From IMG/VR virus record IMGVR_UViG_2648501149_000019: 23,836 bases of DNA. One strand, given 5' to 3'. The DNA comes from a virus (lineage: Duplodnaviria > Heunggongvirae > Uroviricota > Caudoviricetes). Each line of letters begins with the position of its first letter. Positions within the stretch are counted from its first letter, which is position 1. Shown here piece after piece: positions 5,728-16,777 of the stretch. The notes beneath the pieces were generated by a model. It saw nothing but the letters and a program-made list of their open reading frames with translations, did no database searches and was not told the DNA's origin. Position numbers and translations under genes: made by a program.

Positions 5728-5756
5728 ATAATAGGTTTGCCGATTTTTCCTGTCAA
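5728..5756 (-). promoter_or_regulatory. Sigma70-like leftward promoter (pL-like): -35 TTGACA, 17-bp spacer, -10 TATTAT
   Basis: Minus strand reads TTGACA (plus 5751-5756) then TATTAT (plus 5728-5733) after 17 nt. Located about 50 nt upstream of the HTH gene start. Operator-like motif ATCGA-N4-CCGAT overlaps the -35. Confidence 0.45.
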
Positions 5757-5777: not shown

Positions 5778-5803
5778 AAAAAAAAGCCCACTTAAGAGTG
5801 GGC
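5778..5803 (-). terminator. Intrinsic terminator downstream of the cI-like gene (leftward)
   Basis: Minus strand forms hairpin GCCCACT-CTTA-AGTGGGC followed by a run of 8 T, about 20 nt past the repressor stop. Confidence 0.55.
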
Positions 5804-5821: not shown

Positions 5822-6514
5822 TTATGCAAAACGGTGTAGTGTCATAGGCCAACTGACAATTACTTTTCCGTCAATGTGAAGTTGTTCAAAGTCTTCCGGT
5901 TCGATAGCCCAATCCTTGTAAGCTGGGTTGTCAGATATCACCGTTAGAGTATCTTTGATTTTTTGAAGTCTTTTGATGTGCGATGTTCCAGAGTATGTAA
6001 AGGCGTATATACCATCACCATTAAATGCGCGAACTGATACATCTACAAATACCAAGTCTTCAGGGTCTATTGTGCCTTTCATACTGTCGCCGTGGGCGTT
6101 TATTGCTTTGATTGCTGATGCTGGCCTGCCGCCAAAAACTCTTGATGCGTATCCTGGTTCTATCGCTATAGATCTGACAATGTCAGGAAAATCAGAGTTA
6201 TAACTACCAGGTCCGCAACTATATCTGATGTCTAAAACATCCACGACATACGAATCAGTAACCCAATCCTCAGAAATGTTACGTATTTGGTGTGAGTCTG
6301 CAGAGGTCACGATTTCCATTGGGCCAACACCCGATGCGAGCCATTCCGGGTTAACGCCCAAAACTTTTGCTATTTCGACTGTTTTTCTGGAACCGTTGGC
6401 TTTGTTAAGTAGTTGATTGACACTGGACTGAGCCATACCCACTTCTTTGGCCAGCCTACCTTGCGTAAATTTTGCGTTGCGCATAGCTAAATCAAGTCGT
6501 TCTGAAAATGTCAT
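5822..6514 (-). CDS. cI: CI-like phage repressor (N-terminal HTH plus C-terminal LexA-like S24 peptidase domain)
   Basis: 230-aa ORF. N-terminal HTH 'FTQGRLAKEVGMAQSSVNQL'. C-terminal S24 signatures: Ser in 'HGDSM' and Lys in 'IKRLQ'. SD 'GGAGGAAAA' upstream. Divergent from the Cro-like gene. Confidence 0.85.
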   Translation of the reverse strand: MTFSERLDLAMRNAKFTQGRLAKEVGMAQSSVNQLLNKANGSRKTVEIAKVLGVNPEWLASGVGPMEIVTSADSHQIRNISEDWVTDSYVVDVLDIRYSCGPGSYNSDFPDIVRSIAIEPGYASRVFGGRPASAIKAINAHGDSMKGTIDPEDLVFVDVSVRAFNGDGIYAFTYSGTSHIKRLQKIKDTLTVISDNPAYKDWAIEPEDFEQLHIDGKVIVSWPMTLHRFA

Positions 6515-6633: not shown

Positions 6634-6897
6634 ATGAAACATAAAGCCATAGAGAAAGCTATTGAGATTCTTGGAAGTCAGCAAGCCTTAGCCAAGCGAT
6701 GCGGAAAGGCCCAGTCAACAGTCTGCGATTGGTTGAACTGCAAGAACAAGATTTCACCAGAATTTGTGCCGTTATTGGTTGCAGCTGTCGACGGAAAGAT
6801 CCAAGCGTATGAATTTCGTCCAGACCTACCAGAGCTTTTTCCACATTCAGGCTTAGCGCACACAGAGGATGACAAGCCCACAGGAGACCAACAATGA
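6634..6897 (+). CDS. cro: Cro-like small DNA-binding regulator
   Basis: Track ORF 6583..6897, trimmed to the ATG at 6634 (MKHKAIEKAIEILGSQQALAKRCGKAQSTVCDWL...) with SD 'AGGAG' upstream. HTH-like segment. Divergent from cI. Confidence 0.65.
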   Translation: MKHKAIEKAIEILGSQQALAKRCGKAQSTVCDWLNCKNKISPEFVPLLVAAVDGKIQAYEFRPDLPELFPHSGLAHTEDDKPTGDQQ

Positions 6898-7601
6898 ACA
6901 CCGCAATTTTTAACGGCAAAGCATCCATGACCAGCGTTGAGATCGCAGAGCTGGTGGGTAGCCGCCATGACAAAGTGAAACAATCCATTGAGCGCCTTGC
7001 TGAACGAAGGATTATTCAGCTTCCCCCAATGGGGATTTCTGAAAATATCAATGGGTTAGGTTTAACTCAAAAAAGTAAGCATTATCTTTTCGAAGGTGAA
7101 CGAGGCAAACGCGACAGCATCATTGTCGTCGCACAGCTTTGTCCCGAATTCACAGCCCGCCTGGTAGATCGCTGGCGCGAACTGGAAGAACAGATCCGTA
7201 AGCCAATGAGCGAAATCGAAATGGTTGCCGCGATGGCTCTTGAAGCTGTTCGTCAGCAGAAACGGATCACTCAGGTGGAAGAAAAAGTCAGCCACGTTGC
7301 CGAAACAGTTGAGCAAATCAAAAAGGGCAACATTCGTGAGGGCTATGCCGGATATCGCCAACTGAAAGCAAAAACCGGTTTGTCAGATGATAAATGCCGC
7401 AATCTGGTGAACGCTTATCAAATTCCTACAGACACCCATGAGTTCATGACGCCGGACGGATTGTTGTCACGTCGCGCAATTGTTGCTGTGGAACCGTTTA
7501 TGGCTGCTTTTTATCGGATTATGGAGGAAGCAGAACCGCGAGGGACTCGCTGGTATCACCCGAAAATGGGGTTATTTCAGGTTATTGGTTGGCAGTGGTG
7601 A
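6894..7601 (+). CDS. Rha-family phage regulatory protein
   Basis: 235-aa ORF. N-terminal pattern 'MTSVEIAELVGSRHDKVKQSIERL' matches the Rha signature as I recall it. Start overlaps the cro stop. Confidence 0.7.
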   Translation: MNTAIFNGKASMTSVEIAELVGSRHDKVKQSIERLAERRIIQLPPMGISENINGLGLTQKSKHYLFEGERGKRDSIIVVAQLCPEFTARLVDRWRELEEQIRKPMSEIEMVAAMALEAVRQQKRITQVEEKVSHVAETVEQIKKGNIREGYAGYRQLKAKTGLSDDKCRNLVNAYQIPTDTHEFMTPDGLLSRRAIVAVEPFMAAFYRIMEEAEPRGTRWYHPKMGLFQVIGWQW

Positions 7602-7625
7602 AAAAAAGCCGGGTAGTGACCCGGC
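7601..7625 (-). terminator. Intrinsic terminator-like hairpin oriented for leftward transcription, inside the rightward early operon
   Basis: Minus strand reads GCCGGGT-CACT-ACCCGGC followed by 7 T. On the plus strand the A-run precedes the hairpin, so it would not terminate rightward transcripts efficiently. Confidence 0.5.
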
Positions 7626-8013
7626 TCGCTCAACGTTAGTAAAGGCAACCTCACAAAGAAGTAAGCCAGTAACATCCAAGAACATTTGCGTTAGTAAAAA
7701 TACCAGTAAGCATATGAATGTTTCAAGCCAAAATATTGATTCTGTAATTTCGGGACGTTACACTGTTCCAGCACCTTATAAAGCGGGTGCCGGGGGTCGC
7801 AGCCCGGAATTGATCAAGGCGATATACGACGCGCCAGCGTCTTTTTTATCGTCTGCGCTCACGCACGCCAGAATTATGGTGGGCTGGGCAGGGGAGCCGA
7901 AAGGCTCGCCGGTTTCCTTGATCGCCGGTACTGCGAACCCTGTTCAGTTCACCACCCATGAGTTTCGCAGCTCCGGTGGTGGAAGTTTTTCACCGATCAA
8001 GGAGGCTGCCATC

Positions 8014-16563: not shown

Positions 16564-16777
16564 TTTTTTTATTTACTGTTTATTAAAAACACTACTGCAT
16601 GGTGAATCCCCCTGTGCGGAGGGGCGACTGGTGTAGGTAGCATTTATTATGTTATAGGCAAGCCGACGCGGGTTCAGTGACACCGGCTGAATTCACCGGG
16701 AGGCACCCGGCACCATGCGCTGCAACAAAAGTGTTATTTCTGTTTTTCTCAAACTATCATCGTTATCCCTTTATTTC

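Follow-up and report, generated by a model that had tools for sequence, protein, structure and literature searches.

An isrK/C4-type RNA cassette and a candidate leftward small RNA between two Rha-like genes of a lambdoid phage

What is encoded in the 412 base pairs (bp) that separate two early, Rha-like genes of a temperate lambdoid phage is the question raised by the locus described here. The locus lies in the IMG/VR record IMGVR_UViG_2648501149_000019, of which the whole stretch of 23,836 nucleotides (nt) was analysed and is referred to as the window; the closest relatives of the window are Escherichia phage ASU11, phiP27 and several Shiga toxin (Stx)-converting phages. The gap opens after the stop codon of a Rha/Ant (Roi-like) gene (6894-7601, plus strand) and closes at the ATG at 8014 of a nested short Rha-like gene (8014-8376, plus strand). 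In a preliminary description, the gap had been regarded as the possible site of a leftward RNA resembling OOP of phage lambda, or else as part of a longer second gene.

When all its parts are judged jointly, it is quite likely that the gap is made of two adjacent modules, a rightward RNA immunity cassette (7736-8013) and a separate module of ~125 bp (7601 to ~7728), and that a long open reading frame (ORF, 7714-8376) runs through the cassette into the short Rha-like gene.

The rightward isrK/C4 RNA cassette

Two RNA families of Rfam are present on the plus strand of the gap, both above their gathering scores; the gap is not empty. The first is an isrK/P4 seqA-like RNA (RF01394, 7771-7847; 57.6 bits, gathering score 50), which carries its own terminator, a hairpin at 7828-7841 followed by U6. 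The second is a C4/P4 CI-like antisense RNA (RF01695, 7872-7959), matched over its full length with 85.0 bits at a gathering score of 45. Upstream of both, on the plus strand, lies a promoter (7736-7764) with a -35 element TTGATT (7736-7741), a spacer of 17 nt and a -10 element TACACT (7759-7764), which ends 7 nt before the start of the isrK model. For comparison, 80 viral contigs encoding close Rha-like relatives (L129-L208) were combined with the window into a set of 81 loci, and the promoter is conserved in 72 of them.

The fold of the C4-like RNA, a long outer stem around two hairpins with the CACCACC 3' arm visible, is backed by covariation: across 24 distinct sequences, including those of Gifsy-1 and P4, its 28 pairs are 99.6% canonical, and 13 of them show two-sided compensatory changes. 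The loop of the second hairpin contains the segment b' (UUUCCUUGAUCG, 7913-7924), which is followed by the segment a' (CUGCGAA, 7931-7937). Target sites for both are found further along the same strand (7964-8005), namely a2 (UUCGCAG, 7964-7970) and b2 (CGAUCAAGGAGG, 7994-8005). The complementarity between b' and b2 extends over 12 nt, and b2 holds the Shine-Dalgarno (SD) sequence AGGAGG (8000-8005) of the gene at 8014; this strong SD and its ATG had been recognized from the outset. In addition, the isrK-like RNA bears a second set of target copies, a1 (7797-7802) and b1 (UGAUCAAGG, 7811-7819), so that a' matches both 7964-7970 and 7797-7802, and the b' loop is complementary to b1 as well as to b2.

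These complementarities covary among the loci. Eleven types of b' loop and nine types of a' occur in 20 combinations, each of which is matched by its own sites on the SD side and on the isrK side, and both a1 and b1 covary with C4. Cognate complementarity exceeds non-cognate complementarity in every comparison (11.6 versus 5.8 nt for b'-b2, 9.2 versus 6.3 nt for b'-b1 and 7.0 versus 5.1 nt for a'-a2). Hence small antisense-type RNAs are indeed encoded in the gap, as had been suspected, but the well-supported ones are rightward and would act on the gene at 8014 rather than on the gene upstream.

The order of these elements permits a mechanism to be proposed. Transcription from the promoter at 7736-7764, which looks constitutive, would yield a short isrK/seqA-like RNA ended at its own terminator (7828-7847), and passage of the polymerase beyond this terminator would give a longer transcript from which the C4-like RNA would be cut out. 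Since the SD of the Rha-like gene at 8014 is part of b2, this site would be masked once a' and b' have paired with their targets a2 and b2 in the mRNA, and translation would be blocked, possibly with termination as a further consequence, while the isrK-like RNA, with a1 and b1 as target decoys, could counteract C4. Translation of the long ORF would be confined to transcripts from the early-right promoter, which by the same logic would be the counterpart of the upstream promoter of P4, and would overcome the block imposed by the RNA. In this way the cassette probably provides a second immunity threshold for induction, one based on RNA.

The sequence from ~7728-7735 rightward is common to 374 phage records, in only 9 of which the similarity extends to the left part of the gap; judged from this sequence distribution, the isrK-C4 cassette is a mobile module. 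The 20 combinations of a' and b' in close relatives suggest rapid diversification of heteroimmunity. Within the 260 nt upstream of position 1501 in the same 80 contigs, the a' and b' segments assort independently, which implies recombination between the recognition sites and a fast turnover of heteroimmunity classes. In some of the contigs (L190 and L191), the cassette is directly preceded (~420-235 nt before the Rha-like ATG) by a further b2/SD/ATG and the N-terminal end of another Rha-like gene, an arrangement that suggests tandem or nested immunity cassettes. When viral contigs were scanned with a degenerate C4-loop pattern, most matches were chance ones and the loop length of the window itself was missed, and about a dozen true C4 loci were kept.

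Some observations speak against this account of the cassette. The isrK promoter agrees with the consensus at only 8 of 12 positions and falls below the promoter-scan threshold, and the Rfam c4-a1b1 model scores below threshold in the window, though above it in Gifsy-1. More generally, every functional step is read from sequence and from homologues.

The left module and a candidate leftward RNA

The left module adjoins the Roi-like gene so closely that the two share a nucleotide. The TGA stop codon (7599-7601) ends in the first A of a run of seven (7601-7607), which on the minus strand is the U7 tract of an intrinsic leftward terminator (7601-7627) with the stem GCCGGGT/ACCCGGC (7608-7614/7619-7625) and the loop CACT. 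This hairpin had been noticed in the preliminary description and is borne out: under strict criteria (7 perfect base pairs, at least 5 of them GC, and at least 6 T of 7), just two sites in the whole 23.8-kb window qualify as terminators (7601-7627 and 5786-5803), each on the minus strand, and dinucleotide shuffles contain 0.02 per window. The leftward terminator is far beyond chance. Its stem GCCGGG/CCCGGC is invariant in 45 related loci, in which the loop and the closing pair vary and the A-run, made up of the last stop-codon base and the terminator U-tract, measures 6-8 residues.

Several neighbouring observations concern such hairpins. The other strong terminator of the window, GCCCACTCTTAAGTGGGC followed by U8 (5803..5786, minus strand), stands directly 3' of the cI stop codon, and beyond it lies the best promoter match of the region (TTGACA-17-TATTAT, 5756..5728, minus strand, 11/12), probably the pL-like promoter of the leftward operon. 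In phiP27 (L001, 2211-2240), a different GC hairpin, GGCCGG-cagagaaaa-CCGGCC, occupies the same place after the Roi-like stop; it has a T-rich tail on the minus strand and is followed by an extra gene (L15) and then by the cassette. A nutR-like (boxA/boxB) interpretation of the hairpin in the window together with CGCTCAAC was considered by eye and rejected because the order is reversed in comparison with lambda and the A-run fits a minus-strand terminator.

To the right of the terminator, a candidate leftward promoter occupies 7697-7726 on the minus strand, with a -35 element TTGAAA (7726..7721), an 18-nt spacer and an extended -10 element TGgTATTTT (7705..7697), in which TG is at 7705..7704 and TATTTT at 7702..7697. 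It had been correctly located, although by consensus it is weak. A transcript from it would start at ~7691-7689 and, if ended at the terminator at ~7601-7605, would be a structured RNA of ~85-90 nt with GUUCUUGGAU towards its 5' end, a hairpin in the middle and the U7 terminator at its 3' end. The promoter stands back to back with that of isrK, the -35 hexamers being 9 bp apart. Folding of the candidate transcript gave -31.8 kcal/mol (z=-4.2).

Comparison among the 81 loci adds to these observations. The terminator and the promoter-like site occur together in 45 of the 46 loci bearing either, the remaining one having the promoter only, and 35 of the 81 have neither. The spacer between them exists as three sequence types that are poorly alignable, each with its own hairpin in the same place; in the window this middle hairpin (7644-7667, minus strand) is GGC-UU-ACUUC-UUUGU-GAGGU-U-GCC, and types B and C carry different ones. 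Conserved across the types are CTCAAC, the -35 element, the TG, key positions of the -10 element and a 10-mer (7674-7683; ATCCAAGAAC on the plus strand, GUUCUUGGAU on the minus strand), which is near-invariant, a single variant (AGCCAAGAAC) having been found in L148. When type A is compared with type C, a difference is seen at 1 of 14 critical promoter positions as against 8 of 16 other positions (Fisher p=0.017). Given the joint occurrence of the two elements, the conserved promoter positions and the type-specific middle hairpins, the leftward RNA gains comparative support as a plausible candidate, with a chance of being real that we put at about even.

The predicted RNA looks like one of the Hfq type, with a conserved single-stranded 5' segment, a hairpin, a U-rich linker and the U7 terminator; the 10-mer, of which no second copy was found in the window, could serve as its seed. 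Over its whole length, the candidate is complementary to the leader that read-through transcripts from the early-right promoter carry directly before ATG 7714. In relatives without the left module, the start of the long ORF either follows directly on the Roi-like stop or is preceded by a strong SD, so the module replaces a coupled start. It is a tentative possibility that the leftward RNA is an undescribed Hfq-type small RNA gating translation of the long, eta-like ORF, either by pairing with the leader or by convergent transcription. If this were true, the route to the Rha-like regulator and to the replication genes that is insensitive to immunity would be gated by this RNA, and lambdoid phages of pathogenic E. 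coli would have a third RNA layer in an immunity cassette of the P4 type.

The left module is found in 237 of 5426 complete E. coli genomes and, if expressed, would represent a new prophage small RNA in ~4% of them. Among the matches listed (40 of the 237 records), all were annotated with a Rha family regulator and an ash-family or Rha-family protein, and one carried an insertion sequence (IS) in place of the ash gene. In L007 (E. coli ETEC4090, ~1040-1110), an IS is inserted after ...CCAAATAT, overlapping the isrK -35 element TTGATT just to the right of the leftward -35 element, and parts the left module from the cassette. A pattern scan of species genomes with the left-module invariants returned 52 chance matches in unrelated taxa and none in enterobacteria.

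Against the candidate RNA stand a number of findings, several of which would fit a rival explanation, namely that the hairpin is a mere insulating terminator, which stops stray antisense transcription from the right (for example from near the isrK promoter) before it reaches the Roi-like gene, cro and cI/OR, and that the promoter-like site is incidental or reflects the region of ATG 7714. The site matches the consensus at 9 of 12 positions, and such sites are not enriched in the region (8 found versus 5.2 expected); its conserved positions overlap the conserved ATG 7714, so that the conservation there could instead reflect the start of the long ORF. The hairpin of phiP27, with its T-rich minus-strand tail, is followed by an inserted gene instead of a promoter. 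No trans target of the 5' region of the leftward RNA within the window beat shuffled controls. Nevertheless, a bare insulator would need neither a hairpin nor a 10-mer, both of which each of the three spacer types keeps; nor would it account for a terminator and a promoter-like site that are gained and lost together, or for key positions of -35, TG and -10 that are kept while the spacer varies. The insulator is accordingly judged unlikely.

The strand on which the module acts has also to be weighed. Rightward transcription of this region from the early-right promoter is certain, and the elements at 7601-7700 could act on the plus strand, as the 3' untranslated region of the Roi-like mRNA or as a leader of the long ORF with a stabilizing, processing or regulatory role, no leftward RNA being made at all. 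Plus-strand folds are fairly stable (-21 to -30 kcal/mol), but minus-strand folds are more stable in most variants. Two stem substitutions are informative and conflict, one in type C being a G-U wobble only on the plus strand and one in type A only on the minus strand; with one event pointing each way, the wobble pairs favour neither strand. The A7 run precedes the GC hairpin on the plus strand and no U run follows it there, an order that is sensible only for a minus-strand terminator, and action on the plus strand alone is rated as distinctly improbable.

Further results that count against the leftward RNA came from searches for structure and for known relatives. RNAalifold, applied to both strands, missed the middle hairpin and gave a covariation term of ~0; it recovered only the terminator because MAFFT leaves the three unrelated middle hairpins unaligned. 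A low-threshold Rfam scan of the window found no family on the minus strand, only noise (E above 2), and a literature search by sequence strings returned no match for the leftward RNA. The small RNAs of Tree et al. 2014 and of a 2026 preprint on Pas small RNAs were considered as its possible counterpart and set aside, since they are located in the late region near Q/PR' and not at 7601-7728.

The long open reading frame and its genomic setting

The ORF that spans the cassette encodes 220 amino acids (aa; 7714-8376, plus strand). From a start to the left of the isrK promoter, it passes in frame across the isrK-like and C4-like RNAs into the short Rha-like gene, whose ATG at 8014 it contains. 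Its own ATG had been placed at 7717 and is actually at 7714-7716. In ASU11 the gene beginning with this ATG is annotated as gp46c; PGAP names the product 'ash family protein', and Pfam reports Phage_ASH and Rha. The Phage_ASH match (66.9 bits) covers exactly the isrK-C4 stretch of the translation, and PHROG 995 and 821 span both halves.

The frame is open over at least 312 nt in all 81 loci. Among 67 distinct sequences, with stop positions mapped for each sequence, no polymorphic stop position falls in the frame of the long ORF as against 22 in each of the other frames; a stop-allele test in consensus context was dropped, as it was confounded by indels and diverged rows. Differences in C4 loop length among the loci are multiples of three. 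Upstream of 8014, variation shows no third-position excess, and thus the amino-acid sequence is not what is conserved there, unlike in the Rha part, in which variation at the three codon positions amounts to 0.034, 0.033 and 0.121. The short gene itself (120 aa; PHROG 995 and 518) has a clear coding signature. Selection keeps the reading frame that begins at ATG 7714 open without amino-acid constraint, as fits an eta-like ORF that overlies RNA genes; the earlier suggestion of a longer second gene is partly right.

The reading offered by public annotation, an ordinary 220-aa gene of the ash family (7714-8376) with the gap as its N-terminal half and the Rfam matches as incidental, has to be set against this evidence. 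PGAP and the GenBank annotations of relatives, the Phage_ASH match, the two PHROG families over both halves and a frame open in every relative are all in its favour. Yet an ordinary gene would not be expected to lack codon-position bias upstream of 8014 when its Rha part shows it, to contain an internal promoter and an internal terminator, or to change by 13 compensatory RNA pairs, and the three-way covariation of loops and targets is a signal of RNA-RNA pairing, not of protein; moreover, ATG 7714 has no SD and the frame is interrupted in Gifsy-1 and in distant loci. Such a gene is therefore highly improbable.

The absence of an SD at ATG 7714 in the window also tells against the proposed account of the cassette and its long ORF, and so does the closure of the frame in more distant C4 loci; a strong SD precedes the long ORF in other left contexts. 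In Gifsy-1, orf45 is a separate ORF and ends in an ATGA overlap with anrP (...TTATGA...). The fusion is therefore a feature of the present subfamily and not of the whole C4 family. The equivalent of orf45 in the window comprises 46 codons (7876-8013, plus strand), with an AUG in the 5' arm of C4, no stop codon and the same frame as ATG 8014.

Two further observations bear on this ORF. The Pfam family Phage_ASH (PF10554), like the 'ash family protein' of PGAP, corresponds to the translation of isrK/seqA and C4/CI RNA genes (7759-8034 in the window; 8812..8168 in P4, L210) and thus to the N-terminal part of P4 Eta; since the stretch has no codon-position signature in this subfamily, the 'protein family' seems to owe most of its conservation to the RNA. 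Besides, the start context GGAGGTGC..CATGATCCGC(C/T)AC of small ORFs 3' of the Rha-like gene (8564; window 8340-8590) recurs in the upstream regions of L147, L154 and L170, where the long eta-like ORF starts from it with a strong SD, which hints that recurring start contexts act as module junctions.

For annotation, the consequence is that pipelines label the stretch as one protein and omit two RNA genes. Its conservation is explained by the two RNAs and the nested ORF, and public records are mis-annotated.

Around the gap, the gene order is that of a lambdoid early region. A LexA-family cI repressor gene (5822-6514) lies on the minus strand and a cro-like gene (6635-6897) precedes the Roi-like gene, which encodes 235 aa, matches Pfam Phage_pRha (32.7 bits) and PHROG 63 (anti-repressor Ant) and has relatives annotated as Roi or as DNA-binding protein. 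Small ORFs and replication genes follow the short Rha-like gene. The cassette thus sits between cro/Roi-like early genes and replication genes, in a lambdoid phage of a kind often found in E. coli pathogens, Shiga-toxin strains among them. Further downstream, at 15567-15807 and 16571-16751 on the plus strand, are three tRNA genes and an STnc100 small RNA (117 bits), the tRNA genes sitting ~0.8-1 kb upstream of STnc100; the latter is treated as a PasD relative in the 2026 preprint.

Comparison with known systems

The likeness to OOP of lambda, from which the preliminary description had started, is one of layout: OOP is, and the candidate would be, a small leftward unit of comparable length in an early-right region, with its own promoter (here a candidate) and a strong intrinsic terminator; no sequence or family relation was detectable. 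OOP overlaps the upstream coding sequence, whereas here the U-run ends at the stop codon (7599-7601), and the candidate, antisense only to the intergenic leader, would overlap the upstream ORF by at most 1-3 nt. The analogy fails on its defining point, and a true OOP analogue, which would pair with the 3' end of the upstream gene and trigger RNase III cleavage of its mRNA, has next to no likelihood. The sar RNA of P22 immI is likewise a small leftward RNA next to an antirepressor-type cassette and is antisense to the ribosome binding site of ant; the candidate here is far from the regulated SD, lying ~300 nt upstream of it, and covers no start codon.

The rightward cassette finds closer relatives. 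In the immI system (c4-icd-ant) of P1 and P7, a C4 antisense RNA is cut from the transcript that it controls, as would be the case here, and its a' and b' segments pair with a2 and b2 over the ribosome binding site of the next gene, with a1 and b1 copies upstream. Variants of specificity are also shared, as in the heteroimmunity of P1 and P7 (PMC8198154), and processing of C4 by RNase P is known for P1/P7 and P4 (PMC5499578). The C4-type block in P1 and P4 additionally leads to early termination before downstream genes. The cargo differs, being icd/ant in P1/P7 and a Rha-like gene here, and with its long overlapping ORF and an isrK form that ends at a terminator of its own the cassette is more like P4 and Gifsy-1.

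With the isrK-orf45 (STnc1160)-anrP locus of Gifsy-1, the cassette shares the order of an isrK RNA, a C4-like RNA and then a regulator gene, the a/b complementarities, and a leader ORF (MVG..GEPKGSPV) with the same AUG, placed within the C4 5' arm, and the same frame. The short IsrK RNA of Gifsy-1 acts as a translational activator of the read-through mRNA (Hershko-Shalev et al. 2016, PMC4825925). The differences are that a TGA stands two codons upstream of the orf45 AUG in Gifsy-1, whereas the frame of the window is continuous from 7714 to 8376 (...GCC ATC ATG GCT...), and that the isrK locus follows Q in Gifsy-1 and cro/Roi here. The downstream protein is unrelated to AnrP by BLASTP (E=0.84), and no Rfam match to isrJ was found in the window.

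The system of P4 corresponds in the arrangement of all three rightward components. An isrK/seqA-like element and a C4/CI-like RNA follow each other in the same order, the isrK model scoring 60.8 bits in the seqA region of P4 and 79.3 bits in Gifsy-1, and an eta-type ORF (214 aa, 8812..8168) runs through seqA and CI in frame into a nested gene; it gives a Phage_ASH match as does the long ORF here, and the junction ...EAAIMAT... is common to both, ...QEAAIMATTL... in P4 leading into the 65-aa Kil. In P4, CI/seqA interactions bring about termination of the transcript from the internal promoter, Kil is made only when the occasional polymerase reads through, and translation of full-length Eta, which takes place only from the upstream promoter, prevents termination (PMC10111431); according to the same work, the C4 and isrK models of Rfam detect CI and seqA relatives inside Bro-network genes. 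The nested gene is the Icd-like Kil in P4 and a 120-aa Rha-like gene here, and P4 is a satellite, whereas the present cassette belongs to a lambdoid early-right operon upstream of replication genes. P4 is also without a counterpart of the leftward promoter-terminator module, the only part of the locus not already described and, if real, a modestly new one. The rightward cassette is of an already known kind, that of P4, P1 and Gifsy-1, and the three-way covariation together with the C4 fold is the very signature of P1/P7 c4, of P4 immunity and of Gifsy-1 isrK-orf45-anrP.

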